64,000 nucleotides of DNA from an uncultured Acidobacteriota bacterium (GTDB lineage Bacteria; Acidobacteriota; Vicinamibacteria; Marinacidobacterales; SMYC01): NCBI GenBank assembly GCA_963820855.1, contig CAWGBY010000009.1:400034-464033 (forward strand). Direction: 5' to 3'. Shown piece after piece: positions 51,975-63,754 of the stretch. The notes beneath the pieces were generated by a model. That model searched no databases, was not told where the DNA came from, and was given only the letters and a program-made list of their open reading frames with translations. The stretch's first letter is position 1. Every line of letters begins with the position of its first letter. The position numbers and the translations under genes are program-made.

Positions 51975-53243
51975 TCAGGATTCCTTTCGCGTGAGGAGCC
52001 GGGCGGCCTCCTCGGAAGCGACGTCGAGAGCCGTCGCCCCCGATTCGTCTCGCGCAGTAACGGAAGCTCCTCTCTCGAGGAGCAGTGAAACGATTTCCAG
52101 AAACCCGTAAGCGGCGGCGTAATGGAGGGCGCTCCAGCCGGCGCGGGGGAAGCCCTTTCCGCCGCGCCTCGCGGATACGTCGGCGCCACTTCCGATCAGA
52201 ATCTTCGCGGCCTCGAGGCGGCGCCCGAAAAGCGCCGCGATGAGAGGGGTCACCTCGATGGGATGCTTCGATACGACGTTCACGCTGGCGCCGCGGTCGA
52301 GGAGGAGACGAATCGCGTCCGCATGCCCGAAGTGCGCCGCGAGCGCGAGGGCGGTGAATCCCTCACCCGAGAACGAATCGACGAGCCCGGGCGTCTCGTC
52401 CAGGATCGAAAGAAGGCGCTCCGTGTCGCCGATGGCGGCGGCTTCGTGGAGGTCGACCGGGCCCGAGGCTTCCCGAAGGAGTGCTCCGAGCTCCTGGTGT
52501 CCGTTCGCGGCCGCAAGGATGAGTGCGGTGTTCCCCATGATGTCCCGGCCGTGTCGGAGGCGCGGATTGGAAAGAAGCAGGGACCGGACCCGCGCGGTGT
52601 CTCCCGTCCGCGCCGCGTGAAGGATCTCGACGACGCCGTGCGCGAACCGCGAGTCCCGCGAAGGCCGGCGGCTCCTGAGACCGTCGGCGAGCTCGTCGGT
52701 CAGGATCTCGCGGAGCTTTTCTCTGCCGTCGTAGAGGCGCTTCTTGATCGTTCCCACGGGCGCGTTCAAGAAAGCCGATAGCTCCGCGAGCGAGTGGCCG
52801 CTCATGTAATGAAGCACCAGGACCGCCCGCTGTTTTTCAGGAATCTGGTGGAGCGCATCGGTCAACCGATCCGTCATCTCGTTCCTCTCGGCGATGTCCT
52901 CGGGGGAGGGCGCATTCGATCGGGTCTCGGAAACTTCCTCGAAGGACACCATTCGGGGCGAGCGCTTGCGGGTGCGCCGGTCGCAGTGCTTGAAAACGAT
53001 GCGTCGAAGCCAGCTGGGGAAAGCGAGCGGCTCCCGCAGATCGCCGAGATGTCGATAGGCGTCGAGGAACGCCTCCTGGGCGGCGTCTTCGGCGAGGTGG
53101 AAGTCTCCGAGGATCGAGTACCCGTAGCCGACCGCCATATCCTGAAAGCTCGACACCAGCTCCGAGAAGGCGAGCGGCTCGCCTTCTTTCACGCGCGCAA
53201 TGGCTTCCGTGAAGGGCGGATTCGAGGACGGGAGTGGGCTCAT
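51975..53243 (-). CDS. ECF sigma factor fused to C-terminal ankyrin repeats
   Basis: AEDAAQEAF, FPSWLRRIV, GTIKKRLYDGR; then GNTALILAA, GFTALALAA, TPLIAA, GWSALHYAA, GATALDVA in one uninterrupted ORF. Confidence 0.93.
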   Translation of the reverse strand: MSPLPSSNPPFTEAIARVKEGEPLAFSELVSSFQDMAVGYGYSILGDFHLAEDAAQEAFLDAYRHLGDLREPLAFPSWLRRIVFKHCDRRTRKRSPRMVSFEEVSETRSNAPSPEDIAERNEMTDRLTDALHQIPEKQRAVLVLHYMSGHSLAELSAFLNAPVGTIKKRLYDGREKLREILTDELADGLRSRRPSRDSRFAHGVVEILHAARTGDTARVRSLLLSNPRLRHGRDIMGNTALILAAANGHQELGALLREASGPVDLHEAAAIGDTERLLSILDETPGLVDSFSGEGFTALALAAHFGHADAIRLLLDRGASVNVVSKHPIEVTPLIAALFGRRLEAAKILIGSGADVSARRGGKGFPRAGWSALHYAAAYGFLEIVSLLLERGASVTARDESGATALDVASEEAARLLTRKES

Positions 53244-53829: not shown

Positions 53830-55641
53830 ACCAGCTTCCCCCGCCTCCTCCTCCGAAACCCCCTCCACTTCCGCCGCCGCCGCCGAACCCGCTCGAGCCG
53901 CGGCCGGCGCCGAACGAAATTCCGCCAAGGTGCCGCTCGGGCGCGGCTGCCGAGGTCAATGTCGAGCCCATGGAGTGCATGCTTCGCCCGAGGTCGGAAA
54001 CGAGAGACCGCGAGTCGAAGCGACCCGGCGTGAGCGACGCCGAGCGATACCACGCGGGAGGCTCGGTCAGGAGTCCCTCGAAGCGCTCCGCCCATTCGTC
54101 GGCGCACCCCAGGACCACGGCGTAGGGTAGAACGCGCTCGAAGAGCGTCGGGTCCTCTTTCGACATCCGTTCGAGCCGGTCCTTCTCCACGCGGGTCACG
54201 AACTCCTGAAAGCCGAGACAGTACCGGGCGAGTCGCGCGCCCTTCGCGGTCTTCGCCGGCATGGCGCTCGCGAAGAGACGAATGGCGAGCATCGTCAGAA
54301 CGAGGCAGACGCCGGTGAACACGAAGAAGACGCCGGGCTCGGGGGGAAGGAAGGACCTCACCCGGCCCGAGCTGAGGAGAAAGATGCCGAGGAAAACGGG
54401 AACGACGGCGGCGGCTCCAGCGACCGTGCGATAGAACTTCCGGACCTTCTCGGGGTCGCGGGGGAAGAGTCCCTCGCCGAGCATCTGCCGCGAGATTGCG
54501 CTTTTGATCGACGGAATCGAGCGGTAGAAATTGTTCTTCAGGCTCGACAGGAGCACGGAGTCGCCCGTCGCGAAGAGCCCGTTGTAGAACGCTCGCTCAT
54601 GGGCCTTCAGGTCGTCATCCGCCGGCTTCCGCTTCTCGAAGCGGTAGTCCTTGTTGGTGAGGAAGAGCAACCGGGTGGTCTCTTCCTCCTGGATGGTCAG
54701 GTACCCGCGGACCGCGAGATCGATCGCCGTCGAGACGATGTCCGGTGTGTCGATGCGCTCGTCGAGGAGGCTCCCCACTTCCGCGGGTGAGAGATCCTCG
54801 GGAGGCTCGTACTCGACGACGATCGGCGTACGGCGGCCCGGGTCGCGGCCGAAGCGAAGGTAACAGGAAGAGCATGGCGACGAACGCGAGGATGGGCACC
54901 AGTGCCACGAGAAAGAAGGCGGCGTTGTCGGAGAGCTTCCACCAGAGCTCGCGCGACTGCCGAGGGAGGCTCGAGAACGCCTTTCGGAAAACCGAGCACG
55001 AAGGTAAGGCCCTCGCCGGGCCCGAGGCCGGCCATTTCCGCTTCGTACGTCTTCGCGCTCACCCGCTCCGTCGCTACCGTTGTCTGCGAGCCGAAGACGC
55101 CGGTGAACGTCTTGTGGCGCAAATCCTCGGTGCGAACCTCGACCGGAAGGTGGACGCGCACCTTCGTCTGGAGGATGGGCCAGTCCCACTCCGTTCCCGT
55201 CACGTTCCAGTAGAGCTCGTCGTGCGCTTCGAACCAGTTGATGGCGCGCTGGACGCGGTATGTGATCATGTACGTCTGCTTTCCCGTCACCGTCCGGTCG
55301 GGGTCTCCGATTCGGATGAAGACGCTCCGATCTTCGGGCCAGGTCGTGTATCGAAGAGGCCTCCCCTCGCCATCGACGACGCCGAGGACCCGCAGCCGGA
55401 TCGTGTACCTCGTGCCCACGGAGAGCCCGGCCACGGTTTCCGTTCGCGCGTAGCTCACGGGAATGGTTCGGAAGATGCCGTGCTTCTGCTGGTCGAAGAA
55501 ATCGACCTGGATGGTCTCGGTCACGAAGAGCGTGCCGTCCGGGTCGAGGAGGATGGAAACGTCGAACTCATCGATCTGGCTCGCACTCGCGCCTACGGCC
55601 GCGATCAGAAAAGCCGCGAAGAGAAGCGAGATTCTCGCCAC
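53828..55641 (-). CDS. DUF2207 membrane protein (indels near 54955 and 54860)
   Basis: V.ETI..F..HGIFR.IP, ELYWNVTG.EW, EGLT, DLAVRGYL, LPYAVVLG..W, C-terminal GFGGGG.GGG.GGGGGGSW; adjacent to lemA. Confidence 0.88.
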
Positions 55642-55643
55642 GT

Positions 55644-56189
55644 TCAGAGCCGCACGCTCACGGCGTCACGTTCGGAGGCGTCGGCCTGGAAGAAAGAGCG
55701 TGTCTGGAAGCCGAGGAAGCCGGCGAGAAGGTTCGAGGGAAAGACTTCCTGCTTGGTATTGAAATCGCGCACCACCGCGTTGTAGTAGCGGCGCGCGTTC
55801 GCGATGTCATCCTCGATCGCCGAGAGATCCCGCTGGAGCCCGAGAAAGCCTTCGTTGGCCTTGAGGTCCGGATAGGACTCCGCGAGGGCGAAGAGCCCCC
55901 GGAGGCTCTGGGTCAGAGCGGTTTCCGCCGTCGCCCTCGCCGGGGTCGATGCCGCATCCATCGCCTGGTTACGCGCCCGAACGACTCGTTCCAGCGTCTC
56001 CTGCTCGTGCCGCGCGTAGCCTTTGACGGTCTCGACCAGATTGGGAACGAGGTCGTGTCTCTTCTTGAGATGAACGTCGACGTCGCTCCATGCGTTGTCA
56101 CTGGTGTTGCGCAGACGGATGAGGCCGTTGAAGAGCACCACCACCCAGATGCCAACGGCGAGAACCGCGACCAGACCCACGGCCCACAT
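55644..56189 (-). CDS. lemA: LemA family protein
   Basis: NAWSDVDV.LKKRHDLVPNLVETVKGY, ESYPDLKAN, RRYYN, FPSNL. Confidence 0.95.
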   Translation of the reverse strand: MWAVGLVAVLAVGIWVVVLFNGLIRLRNTSDNAWSDVDVHLKKRHDLVPNLVETVKGYARHEQETLERVVRARNQAMDAASTPARATAETALTQSLRGLFALAESYPDLKANEGFLGLQRDLSAIEDDIANARRYYNAVVRDFNTKQEVFPSNLLAGFLGFQTRSFFQADASERDAVSVRL

Positions 56190-57274: not shown

Positions 57275-57958
57275 TCACTGACTCTTTGGTTGAGGTTCCC
57301 TGGAAACAATCTCGTGGCACCGAGCGCGAATCGAACGCGGGATTGGCCACGAGACCCGACCTTCCTTGCCTTTGATTCGAACGACCAGTTCTGCCTCGCG
57401 ATCTTCTTCCCCGAACAGTGGCACGCCTTCGGAAGTCACCAGCGGGAATACGAGCCAGAAAACGTCATACGCGTAGTCCCTGCGATTCGTACCCGATAGT
57501 GCTTTGACGGTCCTCAGCTCCGGCTGGTAGACGCCGCGGACGGCGGGTTCGGACACGTCGGGCGACTTGGCCCGCAGGAATGCCGCCCAGTCGTTGGGAA
57601 CGATTCCCGAGCCCTCTCGCGGGTCTATCTCCACGAGGATCACCGAATCGCCGCGGCGCTCCGCGTCTCGAACCAGCTCCATCGCGGTTTCGTCGTCGAG
57701 GGCTTCTTGAAGCTGGTGTATTCGCGCGGAGGCACGAATCACCTCGGGGGTCAGCCAGGTGGATCGCAGCTTGTAGTTGTATGAATTCTCCGTGCCGATG
57801 ACACGAGTATCCAACCAGCCGCCCACCCGGCCGTCGACTCTCATCGACTTTCCAATTTCGCTGGCTTGCTTGTCGCTCCAGGAGAGAAACGGTTCCCGTT
57901 CCTGTGCCGACTCTCCGGCGCCCGCCACGAAAGCGGAGATGAGAATTGCCGCGATCAA
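57275..57958 (-). CDS. Secreted hypothetical protein
   Basis: Signal-like N-terminus, protein-like composition, 4-bp overlap with upstream gene. Confidence 0.65.
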   Translation of the reverse strand: MIAAILISAFVAGAGESAQEREPFLSWSDKQASEIGKSMRVDGRVGGWLDTRVIGTENSYNYKLRSTWLTPEVIRASARIHQLQEALDDETAMELVRDAERRGDSVILVEIDPREGSGIVPNDWAAFLRAKSPDVSEPAVRGVYQPELRTVKALSGTNRRDYAYDVFWLVFPLVTSEGVPLFGEEDREAELVVRIKGKEGRVSWPIPRSIRARCHEIVSREPQPKSQ

Positions 57959-58593
57959 TGCGAGCGATCCCGCCGGAGCACCGTGATGAGCTCCGACCCG
58001 CCGAAAGCGCTGGACGCGACGGTCATCCCCACGACCTCGAACCCGCCTTCCGTCGCCTCTTGCAGTTCTTTCTGCATCGTCGACGTCTTGTTCGTCGCGA
58101 GAAGCTTGAACTCACGCATTTTCGGCGCCGCCCCCGCCTGTCGCTCGCTGATCAATACAACTTCCTGGCCTCCAAAGGTCGACGAGAAAACCGTCTGCCC
58201 TCGATACTCGAATCCCGCATCGGCTGCCTCTTGCAGTTCTTTCTGCATGGTGGAGGTCTTGCTCGTCGCGAGGAGCTTGTATTCGAAGTGCTCGTCGCTA
58301 GGCGTCCCCACGGGCTTATTCATAATCACGACGACTTCCGACCCGCCAAAGCCGGTCTCGCCTCCCATCACTGCCACGAAACGATATCCAGCTTCGCCGG
58401 CTTCGTTGAGCTCCTTTTCCATGGTCGAGGTCTTCTTCGTCGCCAGCACCCTGTAGTCCTTTTGGATCGAAGCCTCCTCCTGTCCCGAAGATACAACTGC
58501 TTTGGACAGTGCCTCGGCACTGATGGTGGCTGCCGCTCCCAAGCAGAAGAATATCCACACGAACGCGTTGAGGGATTTCCACAGATTTAGCAT
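57955..58593 (-). CDS. Secreted protein with three tandem ~55-aa repeats (DUF4177-like)
   Basis: AGGAGG RBS; signal peptide; three copies of (Y/F)(R/K)xLATxKTSTMxKELxEAxxxG(Y/F)...FGGxE. Confidence 0.8.
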   Translation of the reverse strand: MLNLWKSLNAFVWIFFCLGAAATISAEALSKAVVSSGQEEASIQKDYRVLATKKTSTMEKELNEAGEAGYRFVAVMGGETGFGGSEVVVIMNKPVGTPSDEHFEYKLLATSKTSTMQKELQEAADAGFEYRGQTVFSSTFGGQEVVLISERQAGAAPKMREFKLLATNKTSTMQKELQEATEGGFEVVGMTVASSAFGGSELITVLRRDRSH

Positions 58594-58894: not shown

Positions 58895-60820
58895 TCAAGG
58901 GTTCGTGGGAGGTCGGTCCACTCCGTTCCAGAGCGTTCCGAGAACGTAGGGACGCGAGACGTCCCCGTGCTCGAAGGCGACCAGTACCTCGTCGTCGACC
59001 TCGGGGAGCGTGAACCCTGCACCCACGATCGGAACCGCAAGTCGGGCCCAGTTGCTCTGTGCGCCAGGAAGCCACGGGAAGCGCACCTTCACGCGAAAGA
59101 GGCGATCGGGGTCCGTGTTGTCCGTGACGATCGCCGACACGGTGCCCGGAAAACTCGGAACGGGAGTGCGCGCTTCCGGCCGGAAGGGAACGTCCGACGG
59201 AATCGCCGTGAACGCGTTTCCATAGGCGAAACAATTCTCGGTCTTGTGCACCACGTGGCGGACGCCGGTCACGACGTAGCTTCCATTGAACGCGGAGCCC
59301 ACGCCCGCGATAGCGATCTGCTTTCCGGCGCGAATGCCGGGAGAGTTGCTGGTGCCGGTGCGTGCTTCGGCGCTCGAGCGCTCGCGCCCGAGGATTGCCT
59401 GCGCGCGACTCCGAGCCCGCTCCGGGCTGACGGCGTCCGCGGCATAGGTGCTGATTTCCCCGAGTCCCGCGGACGTGGCTTCTCCCGTCACGACATTCTT
59501 TCTCACGTAGTCCCATCCACGGACGGTCACTCTCGCCGGGCTCGATGAGCCGCCTACCCGGAAGCTGCTGACGATCTCCGCCGTCCCCGGATCGGCGAAA
59601 TGTCCGTTGTACGGAAGCGCGGGGCCCGCGCTGAAGACGCTGTTGACGTTCGCGATGACGATGCGGCCGTCATCAGCGATGTGATAGTGGATGCCCTCCC
59701 GCTCCAGCAGGCGGCTCACGAAGTCGAGTGCGCTCTCGTCCCACTGCGCTTCGTAGTCGATATTGCCCGGGCCCCCGATGACGCTGAACGAGAAAAGGAG
59801 GTCGAAATCTTGCAATACGATTTCGACGATGTTGGAGAGACTCTGCTGCTCGAACGTAGAGAAGCCGCTGACGGATCGCGCTCGAACCAGAGCGGGCTCG
59901 ATGGTCAGGACGTGAACCGAGCCGCCGGGAATCGTTCCGCCGTACTCCACGGAGGTCACGATTCCTCGCAACGTCGCGGCCGAAAGGTTCGCGATCTGAA
60001 GCGACACATCGCTTCCCACGAGAGCGGGCGGGTCGGAGCTCGCGGTTCGCACCGCGACGCGGAACAAGAAGGGGGAGGAAAGGAGCTCCTCGCCGTAGAC
60101 GCCCACCACTTCGCCACCGGCTCCCGCGAGCGTGACCGCGGCCCCCGAGCCGCACTGGGCGGGCGTCAGGGCGGCGAGAGGAACCGCCACCTGGGCGGCG
60201 TCGACTCCGAGAAGGGCCGCGAGGTTCTCCCTCGGATCGGACGAAGCCCCCGGCGGACCTTGAGGACCCTCCGGTCCCAGGAGAGAAGCAAACCGAGCCC
60301 AGCTTCCGTCGTTTCGATACGCGTCACCCGAGCTTCCGTCGAGGTAGAGGTCCCCCGGTTTCCCCAGTGCCGAAGGTGGTGGGCCATCGCCGGTGAACCA
60401 GAGACTTCCGTCTCTTCCGGGAATCCCCGTCTCGCCTCGATCCCCTTGCCGTCCTTCCGGCCCCGGCGGTCCTTCGGGCCCTTGCGGACCGAGCGCGCCG
60501 AGAGTCACGTCCATGGCGGACAAGTCGTCGATTCGGAGCGATTGCTTTCCCGAGCGGGTGACGATCAGAAGGTAGGTTCCGGGCTCGAGGGATGGCAGCT
60601 CCGCCTGGATCGATGAATCCGTAGAGTGCAGCACGTGGAGCCGGATCCCGTCCAGCCACACCGCGGGGTCCTTCCCGAAGCTCGCGCCCTGAACGAAGAG
60701 AATCTCGCGGGCTTCATCCGGTATCACCCTGGAAATGAACGGTTTCGAGTTGGCGTCGGCCTCCATCACCCGAAGGAAGACGAGAACGAGAACGGAACCG
60801 AGACGCGCGAACTTCCCCAT
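58895..60820 (-). CDS. Signal peptide + Ig/TIG-like + collagen + VgrG (gp27 hub and gp5 OB-fold) fusion lacking the spike
   Basis: Uninterrupted 641-aa ORF; GEELLSSPFLF, YEAQWDESALDFVSRLLEREGIHY, IPSDVPFRP..TP, RVKVRFPW, WAR, LPEVDDEVLVAFEHGD..PYVLGTLWN. Confidence 0.88.
   Translation of the reverse strand: MGKFARLGSVLVLVFLRVMEADANSKPFISRVIPDEAREILFVQGASFGKDPAVWLDGIRLHVLHSTDSSIQAELPSLEPGTYLLIVTRSGKQSLRIDDLSAMDVTLGALGPQGPEGPPGPEGRQGDRGETGIPGRDGSLWFTGDGPPPSALGKPGDLYLDGSSGDAYRNDGSWARFASLLGPEGPQGPPGASSDPRENLAALLGVDAAQVAVPLAALTPAQCGSGAAVTLAGAGGEVVGVYGEELLSSPFLFRVAVRTASSDPPALVGSDVSLQIANLSAATLRGIVTSVEYGGTIPGGSVHVLTIEPALVRARSVSGFSTFEQQSLSNIVEIVLQDFDLLFSFSVIGGPGNIDYEAQWDESALDFVSRLLEREGIHYHIADDGRIVIANVNSVFSAGPALPYNGHFADPGTAEIVSSFRVGGSSSPARVTVRGWDYVRKNVVTGEATSAGLGEISTYAADAVSPERARSRAQAILGRERSSAEARTGTSNSPGIRAGKQIAIAGVGSAFNGSYVVTGVRHVVHKTENCFAYGNAFTAIPSDVPFRPEARTPVPSFPGTVSAIVTDNTDPDRLFRVKVRFPWLPGAQSNWARLAVPIVGAGFTLPEVDDEVLVAFEHGDVSRPYVLGTLWNGVDRPPTNP
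60242..60499 (-). repeat. Collagen-like Gly-X-Y repeats
   Basis: Ten triplets (GAL GPQ GPE GPP GPE GRQ GDR GET GIP GRD) and four more (GPE GPQ GPP GAS), separated by a WFTGDGPP..GKPGDLYLD..GDAY..W unit. Confidence 0.85.
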
Positions 60821-60878
60821 AGACCCCCCCTTTTGGTTTGCTTCGCGCCGATCATTATATGATCCCTCGCGGACCGGG

Positions 60879-62068
60879 ATGACGAACGCTTCGGAAGCTG
60901 GAGATGGTCGGGAAGCGCCTCGTTCCGACGACAGAATGACGCGAGTCGGCCCCGGAACGCCGGCGGGTGAGCTTCTCCGTCGCTACTGGCAGCCGGTGGG
61001 GGTCGCTTCGGACCACCCGCTGCCGCGGATCTGGCAAAGCCCGTTCGGGTTCTGGGAGAGGATCTCGTTCTCTTTCGCGACGGAGAAGGGAAGCTCGGAC
61101 TTCTCGATTCCCATTGCTGCCATCGAGGGACGTCACTCCACTACGGCCGAGTGGAGCGCGCAGGGAATCCGCTGCTGCTACCACGGCTGGCTCTTCGACG
61201 TCGCCGGCCGGTGTCTCGATCAGCCGTGCGAGCCCGCCGAGAGCACGTACAAGGAGCGCGTGCGCCAGCCGTCGTATCCATGCCGCGAGTACCACGGTCT
61301 CGATCTTCGCGTACATGGGTCCTCCCGATCGGATGCCCGCGTTTCCCCGTTTCGACATTCTCGAAGAAGGCGACGGTGTCGTCGTCGCCGACGGAACCTC
61401 ATACGGCCTCGGCGGAGGAGAGATCCTCGAGTGCAACTGGCTCCAGATCTTCGAGAATGTGATGGATCCCTTCCACGTCTTCGTCCTGCACAATGCGTTC
61501 AGCGGGCAGCAGTTCACGACAAGCCCTCGCCGTTCGTCCTCGGGTGAGCTGGGAGACGACGGCAGGAGGAATGCGCTCGATCCAGGATCGCGATACCGCC
61601 AGGACGGAGGAGTCTTCCGGCGGATCACGGAAGTGCTGCTGCCCAACGTGCGCATCGTGCCGAGCGTAGGCGGCGAAGGGGCGATCGGCGCGCGCCCGCC
61701 ACGTGGGGTGGATTCTTCCGATCGACGACACCAGGACGCGTATGTACTCTCTTCTTCGCGTTGCGGTCGAGGCTTCCGGTCCCGTTCTTCCGCCACGGGC
61801 GCGCCACGGAGGAAAGCTCTGGGCGGAGCTCACGGAAGAGGAGCACCGGCGAATGCCGGGCGACGCCGAGGCAATGGTGAGTCAGGGACCGATCGTCGCG
61901 CGCAACCGCGAGCATCTCGCATCGAGCGACCGCGGCGTCATCCTCATTCGCCAGCGCATCCGGGAGGCTCTGGATTCCGTCGAGCGAGGCGAGGATCCGC
62001 CCGGGGTCACGCGCGTCGCCGGCGATCCAATCGTCACCACCACCGCCGGAAATCTCGTCCTGGCATGA
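60879..62068 (+). CDS. Rieske non-heme iron oxygenase (phthalate dioxygenase/LigX-like), several indels
   Basis: TRVGPGTPAGELLRRYWQP, HCCHRG in a shifted frame, CCYHGWLFD, CNWLQ..ENVMDPFH..LH, QGPI..EHLASSDRGV. Confidence 0.88.
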
Positions 62069-63754
62069 CGTCGTTCTCGCGCCCTCGTCTGGGTGTGGGC
62101 CTTCTCGTCCTGGTCCTCGCCGTTCTCACGCTCCCTCCCCTTCTCATGCTCCTCTACGGAAGCCTTCACACGACTCCTCCTGGGAGAGCCGGGGGAGTTC
62201 TCTTTGGCGGGTTACCGGGCGCTCGCGAACTTCGAGGACCGCCGCGGTCCTCGCCAACACCGTGGGCATCTCGCTCGTAAAGACCGTTCTCTCCATGGTT
62301 CTCGCGCTCGGCCTCGCGTGGATCGTCGCGCGCACCGATACGCCCGGGCGAGGGACGCTCGAAGCGTTGATCGCTCTTCCCTTCTTCATTCCTCCGATTC
62401 TCACCGCGACCGCGTGGGGAATGCTCGGAACCCCCCGGGGCGGGCTCATCAATCTGGCGTGGACCGCTCTCAGCGGATCCGCCGAGCCTCTCGTGAACGT
62501 TTACTCGTACGGCGGAGTGGTCTGGCACATGATGCAGTACACGACGCCGTTCCTGTTCCTGCTCTTCACGACCGCTTTCCGCTCCATGGATCCCTCCCTC
62601 GAGGAATCGAGTCGGATGTCGGGAGCGTCCTCCTGGGCGACGTTTCGACGAGTGACTCTCTCGCTTGATGCTTCCCGTCACCACGAGCGCTTTCATTCTC
62701 GCGTTCATCCGCGGCGTCGAGGCCTTCGAATCCCCGATGTTCTTCGGGACGCCGGCCCGCATTCAGGTCCTCACGACCGAGATCTACAACTCGATCCATC
62801 ACGACACCGAGCCCGACTACCAGGCGGCGACGGCGCTCGCTCTCTTCGTCGCCGGACTCCTCTCGCTCCTCATCGTCTGGCAGTGGCGCCTTCTGGGTAC
62901 GCGCAGCTTTCTGACCGTCACCGGACGGGGCTATCGGCCGCGGGTGACGCCGCTCGGCTCGCTCCGATGGGTCACCTTCGGCATCGCCCTCGCCTTCGTC
63001 GTCGTGACCGTCGCGCTTCCCGTCGGCCAGCTTCTCCTCGGCTCGTTCTTCAAGTTCTTCGGTTTCTACCAGAGGGAGATGCTCACTCTCGAGCACTACC
63101 GCGAAGTCTGGAAAAGCCGTCTCGTCTGGAGAGCGCTCGGAAATACGCTCCTCCTGGGATTCGGCGCGTCGACCGCCGCGATGCTTCTGGGATCCGTGGC
63201 GGCCTATGTCGTCGTGCGCACGCGGCTTCCGATGCGGCGGGTCGTCGAGGTCCTCGCCTGGCTCCCCTGGTTGATGCCGGGAATGGTCCTCGGGGTGGGT
63301 CTCCTCTGGGCCTACGCGTTCTTGCCCGGACCTTTCGCTCTCTACGGAACGAGGTGGGCGCTTCTCTTCGCGTATCTCACGCTCTCGATTCCGCTCGCGG
63401 TGCGGACCATGGCGGGAGCGTTCTCCCGCATCGGGGCCGACCTCGAGGAATGCTCGCGGGTCCATGGCGCGGGCTTCTGGACGACGTTCCGGAGGATCCT
63501 TCTGTCGCTCTCCTGGCCCAGTTTCGCCGTCGGCTGGATCTTCTCTGTTCTTCATCATCCTGCGCGAGCTCTCGGCCTCGATCCTGCTCTACGGTCCGGG
63601 AAGCGAGGTATTGTCGGTCGTGATGATGCGCCTCTGGAGCGAAGGAAAGGCCGAGGAGGTGAGCGTCGTCGCGCTCATCATGCTGGTATTCGTCTTCGCG
63701 TTTCGCTTCCTCGAATCACGCATCGCAAAAAAGCACGAGGTGGGCTCATGGTGA
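62065..63754 (+). CDS. ABC transporter permease, FbpB/ThiP-type with two repeats (several indels)
   Basis: RTD.PGR, MDPSLEESSRMSGA and LEECSRVHGA EAA loops, many TM helices. Confidence 0.87.

Follow-up and report, generated by a model that had tools for sequence, protein, structure and literature searches.

An orphan VgrG-type hub with a signal-like N-terminus and collagen repeats, encoded in Acidobacteriota

Architecture of the VgrG-like protein

A 64,000-nucleotide stretch of DNA from an uncultured Acidobacteriota bacterium (the window; the genome assembly that holds it is G000, and the labels G, L, P and X denote genomes, loci, database proteins and sequencing runs) encodes a 641-amino-acid (aa) VgrG-like protein, in which a signal-like segment, a TIG-like domain and collagen repeats precede a gp27-type baseplate hub and a gp5-type OB fold. 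The gene occupies 58895..60820 on the minus strand as a single intact open reading frame (ORF) with an ATG start; the plus-strand reading of 58895-60820 is interrupted by stops. An earlier interpretation made from the letters alone (the sequence-only reading) had described one uninterrupted ORF, which holds, the strand being minus. The stop-to-stop frame extends to 60982, and the ATG at 60820 is the first ATG, GTG or TTG in frame. By eye, a TATAAT hexamer lies upstream of the ATG at 60854-60859; a consensus promoter scan detected no promoter. The features are as follows, in the direction of translation.

60824..60830, minus strand: run of seven G, Shine-Dalgarno-like by eye, 3 nt upstream of the ATG
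60752..60820, minus strand: residues 1-23, signal-peptide-like segment with a basic n-region, a hydrophobic core and A-D-A before N24; predicted local confidence (pLDDT) below 50; layout found in 20/22 homologues
60500..60751, minus strand: residues 24-107, TIG/IPT Ig-like domain (Pfam TIG); all-beta, pLDDT 85-91, with TIG-TIG contacts in the trimer model
60401..60499, minus strand: residues 108-140, collagen run I, 10 Gly-X-Y triplets plus GSL; glycines invariant in 22/22
60278..60400, minus strand: residues 141-181, beta-structured insert of phage-fibre type, W.TG.G.P..G..GD.YLD..GD.Y..W; four strands, pLDDT about 80-85, in 18/22 homologues
60242..60277, minus strand: residues 182-193, collagen run II, 4 triplets by Gly-X-Y count; inter-chain contacts at 177-194
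60110..60241, minus strand: residues 194-237, pre-hub linker with two short helices and the invariant Cys223 (alignment and model); absent from canonical VgrGs
59171..60109, minus strand: residues 238-550, gp27-type baseplate hub (Phage_GPD; Pfam, Foldseek) with the invariant Cys530
58925..59170, minus strand: residues 551-632, gp5-type OB fold (Phage_base_V; Pfam), aligned with its counterparts in solved VgrG, Afp8 and Pvc8
58895..58924, minus strand: residues 633-641, proline-rich tail and stop codon, with no beta-helix after it; 18/22 homologues end at most 4 residues away

Pfam profiles place Phage_GPD at residues 245-525 (E 2.8e-42) and Phage_base_V at 562-631 (E 4.6e-22), together with Collagen at 108-165 (E 1.6e-5, under its cut-off) and TIG at 27-92 (E 6.5e-4; 20.1 bits, just under the cut-off of 20.9). 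Residues 106-185 resemble tail-fibre PHROGs (phrog_3904, E 3.7e-12). An AlphaFold2 monomer model built on the 22-sequence family alignment has a mean pLDDT of 81.7, with low confidence in residues 1-23, both collagen runs and the last nine residues, as is expected of a monomer model of what would be a trimer. In a Foldseek search of the PDB the top match was the VgrG1 of a type VI secretion system (T6SS) (4mtk_A; E 1.4e-32, TM-score about 0.58 over about 450 columns), followed by other VgrGs, by spikes of extracellular and other contractile injection systems (eCIS/CIS; 7aef_q, 7b5h, 9qgm, 9gtr_q, 6j0m, 6rbk) and then by phage hubs. A search of the ESM Atlas with residues 24-236 gave no usable match. 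The parts that the sequence-only reading had named are present: the TIG-like domain, the 10+4 Gly-X-Y triplets, the fibre-type insert, the gp27 hub and the gp5 OB fold.

In 16/16 solved PDB relatives (chains of 491-1879 aa) the OB fold ends at about chain residue 438-503 and the chain continues; the 641-aa protein stops 2-10 residues past the aligned OB-fold end of these relatives. The three minus-strand frames downstream contain no valine-glycine repeats and no needle-like sequence, and hold only a signal-bearing protein with three DUF4177 repeats. Because the stop falls at the end of the OB fold and no needle frame follows, the protein is needle-less, in agreement with the earlier claim that it stops right after the OB fold and that no gp5 beta-helix frame lies downstream.

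The hub and OB fold are those of T6SS VgrG/TssI (e.g. PA0091 VgrG1, PDB 4mtk), although curated VgrG models are split: TIGR01646 vgr_GE scores above its cut-off (136.2 vs. 121.8 bits), TIGR03361 just below (183.9 vs. 186.35 bits, aligned over profile positions 15-452 of 513) and NF033848 VgrG_rel below (148.5 vs. 275 bits). Unlike T6SS VgrGs, the protein has a signal-like N-terminus, a 237-residue N-terminal extension and a Cys-bearing linker. T6SS VgrGs are cytoplasmic, begin with the hub and have no Sec signal, from which the protein differs by a heuristic signal call; they also have a C-terminal beta-helical needle that carries PAAR or effectors, whereas the protein has none. The same hub and OB fold occur in eCIS/CIS spikes (Afp8 6rbk, Pvc8 6j0m, Streptomyces CIS 9gtr_q, Algoriphagus 7aef_q, Anabaena 7b5h), with Foldseek E-values of 1e-22 to 1e-28 and a phmmer E of 6.9e-19 for 9gtr_q, but these start at the hub and go 80-180 residues past the OB fold into a tip-carrying spike, and the 641-aa protein does neither. 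Beyond the aligned OB fold the Afp8, Pvc8 and PlPVC1 chains have another 83-91 residues and end at 529, 538 and 533 aa. Phage hubs (Mu gp44, P2 gpD, T4 gp27, with separate gpV/gp45/gp5) share the Phage_GPD fold (Foldseek E 1e-12 to 1e-15), but there hub and OB/needle belong to a tail; a tblastn search of 50,697 phage records returned no close relative of the protein, only five weak hub matches at 23-29% identity.

Bacterial collagen-like surface or secreted proteins are the likely working analogy. In BclA, Scl and Lcl a collagen stalk is paired with a globular trimeric domain. The plan of BclA, Scl1/Scl2 and Legionella Lcl, in which a signal peptide precedes a short Gly-X-Y stalk with a globular domain that trimerises, resembles that of the 641-aa protein, whose own N-terminus is signal-like. 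The uninterrupted Gly-X-Y runs of the 641-aa protein could form a triple helix, but they are short (10 (+1) and 4 triplets), and the SclB, SclA and Lcl models give collagen-only matches of 15-24 bits against cut-offs of 325-500. Unlike these proteins, its head would be a VgrG hub, with TIG at the other end, and it has neither LPXTG or another anchor nor the C-terminal domain of BclA or Lcl.

Three copies of residues 24-240 were modelled together on the family alignment. The interface score (ipSAE) was 0.79 (runs 0.80, 0.79 and 0.79), against 0.00 for the best of 3 controls, with a partner pLDDT of 78 and runs that agree in at least 84% of contacts. The mark used for ipSAE was reached by 20/30 proteins solved as pairs and 1/23 solved as single chains, a calibration that holds only roughly for a trimer because it is based on two copies, not three; collagen-like trimers are, moreover, a shape that the model already knows. 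Contacts in the collagen, at 108-143 and 177-194, are offset by one residue as in a triple helix, and the TIG domains touch one another through 29-34 with 79-84 and 103-106. The model supports, and does not prove, homotrimerisation of the N-terminal 217 residues, and it fits the earlier proposal of a 'trimerisation base' of a collagen stalk.

Conservation, signal-like N-terminus and cysteine pair

A homologue search over a collection of 5.8 billion proteins gave 49 matches, 17 of which span 93% or more of the query (40-73% identity); P0023, P0025, P0026 and P0028 cover about 70% because the insert is absent. The family alignment comprises the query and 21 homologues (22 rows; 38-74% identity to the query). 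The order of parts is common to all rows, and the collagen glycines, C223, C530 and many hub and OB-fold residues are invariant. Pfam finds GPD, base_V and Collagen in 22/22 rows and TIG in 13/22 (best E 4.6e-7); the W.TG...GD.YLD insert is present in 18/22. The common end point, within 4 residues of the query's stop, is likewise kept in 18 of the rows (query included), with a C-terminal surplus of 8-25 residues in P0021 to P0023 and about 90 in P0020.

Across four orthologue pairs the ratio of nonsynonymous to synonymous substitution rates (dN/dS) was 0.22-0.39 for TIG, 0.12-0.16 for collagen plus insert, 0.15-0.35 for the linker, 0.25-0.29 for the hub and 0.16-0.23 for the OB fold, ratios that are rough because dS is near 1; the signal segment alone evolves faster (0.37-0.65). 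An internal start near residue 228, which the sequence-only reading had raised as a possible objection, is unlikely, since TIG, collagen and linker are under purifying selection and as strongly constrained as the hub (0.12-0.39 vs. 0.25-0.29).

Among 55 genomes of the order there were 5 carriers at E <= 1e-30 and 50 without. Besides G000 the carriers are the other three species in its genus, without exception, and a genome that is the only one from another genus of the same family. A sample of 401 genomes of the phylum contained no further full-length match, the next best being a 1564-aa protein of G093; in the same sample the unpublished genomes G024 and G152 gave partial hub matches only, which are the basis for no claim. 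The source names of relatives point to Vicinamibacteria/Acidobacteriota, and databases already hold the family under automatic names such as 'VgrG family protein.' A scan of genome contigs gave 80 loci with one true member, L040 (on the same contig as G444), the others being ordinary VgrG or eCIS hubs at 23-50% identity; a metagenome scan gave 8 loci. Fragments 95-99% alike were found in soil and sediment metagenome contigs, and X2, a DNA contig from another sample (60030-60491), spans the collagen-hub junction. Coverage by sequencing runs was small, at most 0.15 of sampled words, and uncovered parts are uninformative. Two short contigs of the metatranscriptome X12, 97.6-98.8% alike (60077-60240 and 60464-60631), show presence only and are no proof of expression, because RNA libraries can hold DNA. 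A chimeric assembly, or an indel that hides a needle, either of which would have undone the sequence-only reading, is ruled out by family-wide colinearity (21 homologues with the same layout), the common end point and the bridging X2 contig. The architecture is conserved and selected, and not a chimera or an accident.

The N-terminal segment has a hydrophobic core with a 10-residue Kyte-Doolittle maximum of 2.94, and A-D-A precedes N24. In 20 of the 22 family members a Met is followed by basic residues, a hydrophobic run (10-residue Kyte-Doolittle maximum of at least 1.9) and A-x-A/S; the two exceptions are P0004, with a miscalled start, and P0021, a 5'-truncated gene. The signal-like layout claimed earlier for residues 1-23 is thus present and recurs through the family. 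TIG and collagen are typical extracytoplasmic modules. From these sequence features we infer export of the 641-aa protein via Sec.

The protein contains exactly two cysteines, C223 in the linker and C530 in the hub. An HMMER scan of 1.84 billion proteins gave 19,043 matches at E <= 1e-3 and 164 at E <= 1e-30. The best 150 representatives comprised 46 collagen-repeat proteins and 104 hub-type proteins, 85 of which were tabulated (19 short pieces or partial matches, chosen by eye, were left out). The cysteine alignment had 82 rows, namely 80 of these 85 (five N-terminally truncated proteins were dropped), the query and the G093 protein. Both cysteines were found in 46 rows, neither in 33, the first only in 3 and the second only in 0; the three first-only rows are signal peptides misaligned to the column. 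A disulfide would give such a both-or-neither pattern, and disulfides characterise exported proteins. A hydrophobic N-terminal run occurs in every row that has the cysteine pair and a complete N-terminus. Seven rows with the pair fall below the threshold of 2.0: three start with V (fragments or miscalled starts), three reach 1.81-1.98, and one is the G093 frame, whose true start lies inside the ORF as drawn. The covariation points to a disulfide clamp between Cys223 and Cys530.

The nearest relatives outside the family have signal-like N-termini followed by other N-terminal modules (dockerin-like NGDVNGDG, or YQGRL/YEGVLRD) or directly by the hub. In many the chain terminates just behind the OB fold, e.g. 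P0054, P0056 to P0059, P0067, P0076, P0079, P0087, P0141 and P0144; other signal-bearing hub relatives carry 80-840 residues past it, and among the matches of the HMMER scan canonical VgrGs without a signal-like segment appear only at E about 1e-32 to 1e-37. In a FastTree phylogeny of the 82 hubs (hub and OB columns; unrooted, with many open forks) the query falls in well-supported clades of 2, 4 and 8 rows, all of which have the cysteine pair and a signal-like N-terminus. As a correction to the sequence-only reading, the architecture is not peculiar to this gene: VgrG-like hubs with signal-like N-termini form a larger set, in which it represents a single branch. The occurrence of signal-bearing hubs with other N-terminal modules suggests that the phenomenon reaches beyond one genus.

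The leader is also found in front of other domains. P0041 (504 aa; NCBI source, another lineage) has the same order of signal-like segment, TIG-like domain and a long collagen run, and its C-terminal part consists of two T6SS_HCP domains instead of a hub. The Hcp part of P0041 had no match in G000 or the four relatives that carry the gene, where the TIG-collagen part alone was matched; among the 401 phylum genomes the only matches, in 7 of them, were weak and fell on ordinary small Hcp genes. L128, L129, L133 and L135 (G438, G443, G445) have the signal-TIG-collagen leader before different short C-terminal domains, and the leader looks like a reusable cassette in the bacterial family of the carriers; no paralogue of the N-terminal module was found in G000. 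As a separate observation, a trimer of P0041 would form a pseudo-hexameric tube ring on a collagen stalk, since a tandem-Hcp trimer would be a pseudo-hexamer like the gp27 trimer.

Setting without detectable injection-system genes and proposed role

Profile searches of the 8.26-Mb assembly G000, 74.5% complete by marker genes, returned the gene itself as the single match to Phage_GPD, and no Phage_sheath_1, T6SS_HCP, VipB/TssC, GPW_gp25/TssE, PAAR or Baseplate_J. The four other carriers (91-95% complete) have no Phage_sheath_1, VipB/TssC, GPW_gp25/TssE or Baseplate_J; Hcp, PAAR and Phage_GPD were searched in G000 alone. All injector-family searches gave matches in control genomes. The lack of injector genes that had been claimed for the 64-kb window holds, and extends to the rest of the assembly and to the genus. 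The orphan status likewise holds in all five carriers (no gp25, Baseplate_J, phage-type sheath or TssC). A T6SS VgrG would be expected in a genome with TssB/C, Hcp and TssE, and eCIS spikes are encoded in sheath/tube/baseplate operons, whereas the neighbours of this gene are unrelated.

Genes for gyrase/topoisomerase subunits, a PBP, a Mur ligase and FtsA mark the window as core chromosome. Synteny is seen only among close relatives: G444, L120 and L121 keep the upstream side and have a LigB-type dioxygenase 7 bp downstream of the gene, and L037, L038, L122, L124 and L125 have nothing in common but the gene itself, so that across the 9 compared loci no adjoining gene is conserved. The neighbours that were scanned with Pfam (ten in the window, four in L120, two in L124, two in L038 and one in L122) include no injection-system part; they are a Rieske oxygenase, LigB, an ABC permease, GGDEF, PQQ, amidohydrolase and similar proteins. 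Had homologues always sat inside complete injection-system loci, this would have spoken against the sequence-only reading; the loci scanned here do not show such a setting. A prophage or island setting is ruled out by the core-chromosome context, the synteny with G444, L120 and L121 and the lack of a close relative among the phage records searched. A defence system was also considered; PADLOC gave no match for the protein or its two downstream neighbours.

The explanation that we favour, and place just on the probable side, is that the gene encodes a Sec-exported, disulfide-clamped, homotrimeric extracytoplasmic fibre of lollipop-like shape, with an exapted VgrG hub as its head. The monomer would leave the cytoplasm unfolded via Sec, by way of a cleavable N-terminal signal peptide, and the C-terminal gp27/gp5-OB module would trimerise outside the cytoplasm in the fashion of VgrG hubs, as its fold suggests. 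The Cys223-Cys530 disulfide suggested by covariation would fix the family-specific pre-hub linker to the hub, and the hub trimer would register two short collagen triple helices, the fibre-type insert and three TIG domains, the parts covered by the trimer model. The stalk would project from that side of the hub which, in a real spike, docks on the Hcp tube. A hub without tube, sheath, baseplate and needle would therefore act independently of any contractile injection system, and may be the displayed, trimerising head of a collagen-like protein that is secreted or associated with the envelope. At a guess, its most likely activity would be binding, by which the hub/OB head or the TIG tip would adhere to a glycan, to peptidoglycan or to some other surface.

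Several points weigh against this fibre interpretation. The export call is a heuristic drawn from the n-region, core and A-D-A, and no lipobox, sorting signal or LPXTG was seen in the 641-aa protein. G000 is only 74.5% complete by marker genes and three of its genes beside the VgrG-like ORF have frame breaks, because of which the absence of injector genes rests mainly on the relatives; hidden Markov model (HMM) searches may also miss very divergent parts. Two relatives have a signal-like N-terminus and yet retain a DUF2345 beta-helix (P0129) or a C-terminal PAAR motif (P0068), a hint that exported hubs may, in some cases, still be part of a spike. Given these two proteins, which the exapted head leaves unexplained, the earlier statement that such a protein 'cannot work in a normal injector' is too strong when applied to the whole class.

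The same two relatives, which keep these elements despite their signal-like N-termini, favour a rival that we regard as unlikely, in which the protein is the hub of an unrecognised apparatus, assembled outside the cytoplasm or with HMM-divergent parts, and the collagen stalk links hub to apparatus. The leader shared with the tandem-Hcp protein P0041, and the G093 relative (1564 aa), which is preceded by four large ORFs without a Pfam match, point the same way. Such an apparatus is hard to reconcile with five of five carriers without gp25, Baseplate_J, Phage_sheath_1 and VipB, with a G000 that has no Hcp or PAAR, with the changing neighbours at the nine loci, and with the Hcp part of P0041, which is unmatched in the five carriers and has weak ordinary Hcp counterparts in 7/401 phylum genomes. 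Also improbable, to a similar degree, is an uncleaved signal-anchor by which the trimer would remain bound to the inner membrane, its collagen stalk and hub reaching into the periplasm and its OB folds, for example, contacting peptidoglycan. In favour of it, binding of peptidoglycan glycans by the OB fold has been proposed for T4 gp5, the family conserves the hydrophobic core, and no motif for outer-membrane targeting or anchoring was seen; set against this, the core is short (about 10-12 residues) and in most members is followed, by eye, by small residues at -3/-1 (A-x-A or A-x-S), like those of cleaved signals.

We consider it improbable that hub modules (and in P0041 the tube module) have been repeatedly exapted into Sec-exported, disulfide-stabilised scaffolds on stalks of collagen or another kind, the Acidobacteriota family being a surface fibre with a hub head that captures or mimics tail-like particles (phage tails, tailocins, eCIS, incoming T6SS spikes) or nucleates a new extracellular assembly. 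A surface or secreted decoy or sink, which would titrate or mimic proteins of the tube, baseplate or tip in phage tails, tailocins, eCIS or T6SS, is very improbable: the hub fold is well kept (Foldseek E 1.4e-32) though the genome encodes no partner, and the gene is an orphan, but no PADLOC defence model matches and the tube-docking face may be occluded because the collagen stalk would leave from it. Hardly any weight can be given to the idea that the gene is what remains, decaying or truncated, of a cytoplasmic VgrG whose T6SS or prophage was lost, with the N-terminal part a chance fusion. TIGR01646 vgr_GE does score over its cut-off and sources do name relatives 'VgrG family protein,' but 21 homologues, and every one of the 4 species in the genus, retain the full architecture, every part is under purifying selection, the setting is core chromosome, and the ORF is intact and colinear with its homologues despite the broken frames of its neighbours; the conservation data contradict such decay.

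A full-text literature search found no paper on a signal-bearing, collagen-fused or injector-less exported VgrG, subscription journals and supplements being outside its coverage, and the VgrG passages of PMC3482391 treat it only as a module of T6SS and the Photorhabdus virulence cassette (PVC).

VgrG-type hubs are treated as markers of contractile injection, and annotation pipelines automatically name them 'T6SS VgrG,' the relatives of this protein included. If the fibre interpretation is true, the hub fold has a second life outside the cytoplasm, and if the improbable reading of repeated exaptation is true, these proteins form an undescribed class of extracytoplasmic 'injection-less' VgrG-like proteins. 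This would matter for counts of T6SS and eCIS in soil metagenomes, where such hubs would be false positives, for the reuse of trimeric phage-derived modules as heads of bacterial collagen-like fibres, and for the cell-surface biology of the abundant, poorly known Vicinamibacteria-like Acidobacteriota.

Neighbouring genes and related frames

On one side of the gene lie an ECF-sigma/ankyrin fusion, a DUF2207 protein, LemA, an alpha/beta hydrolase and a DUF4177 protein, and on the other a divergent Rieske oxygenase and an ABC permease. Compared with intact orthologues in G444, the Rieske oxygenase (60837-62065), DUF2207 (53912-55647) and ABC permease (62155-63748) genes are each split over three frames. 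The G000 assembly probably carries indel errors; the breaks may be either assembly indels, which would also explain the 74.5% completeness, or pseudogenes.

The DUF4177 protein (window 57955-58593, minus strand; 212 aa) lies 300 bp downstream of the VgrG-like gene and has a signal-like N-terminus and three DUF4177-like repeats; it was not found at the corresponding position in G444, L120 and L121. The sigma/ankyrin fusion (window 51975-53243, minus strand) is a 422-aa protein with ECF-type (extracytoplasmic function) sigma-70 regions 2 and 4 and C-terminal ankyrin repeats.

Two related frames are extended at the C-terminus. At L037:7836-10952 (minus strand; G445) the frame runs about 390 residues past the OB fold, gaining two Ig-like (Y_Y_Y-type) domains as well as an alpha/beta domain. 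P0008 is near-identical but ends at residue 643; L037 is either a natural fusion or an assembly artefact. The 1564-aa protein at L136:7766-12460 (plus strand; G093) has a signal-like start inside the ORF, a YEGVLRD module, a Cys-bearing linker, the hub and the OB fold, followed by a 770-residue C-terminal extension; preceded by four large ORFs without a Pfam match, it may belong to a different system.

The fibre-type insert has a wider occurrence of its own. P0027, P0029, P0033 and more than 40 HMMER rows are large signal-bearing proteins in which collagen runs alternate with a W.TG.G.P...GD.YLD...Y.K..G.W unit. The W.TG...GD.YLD unit corresponds to no Pfam family; it occurs once in the 641-aa protein and many times in P0027 and P0029.

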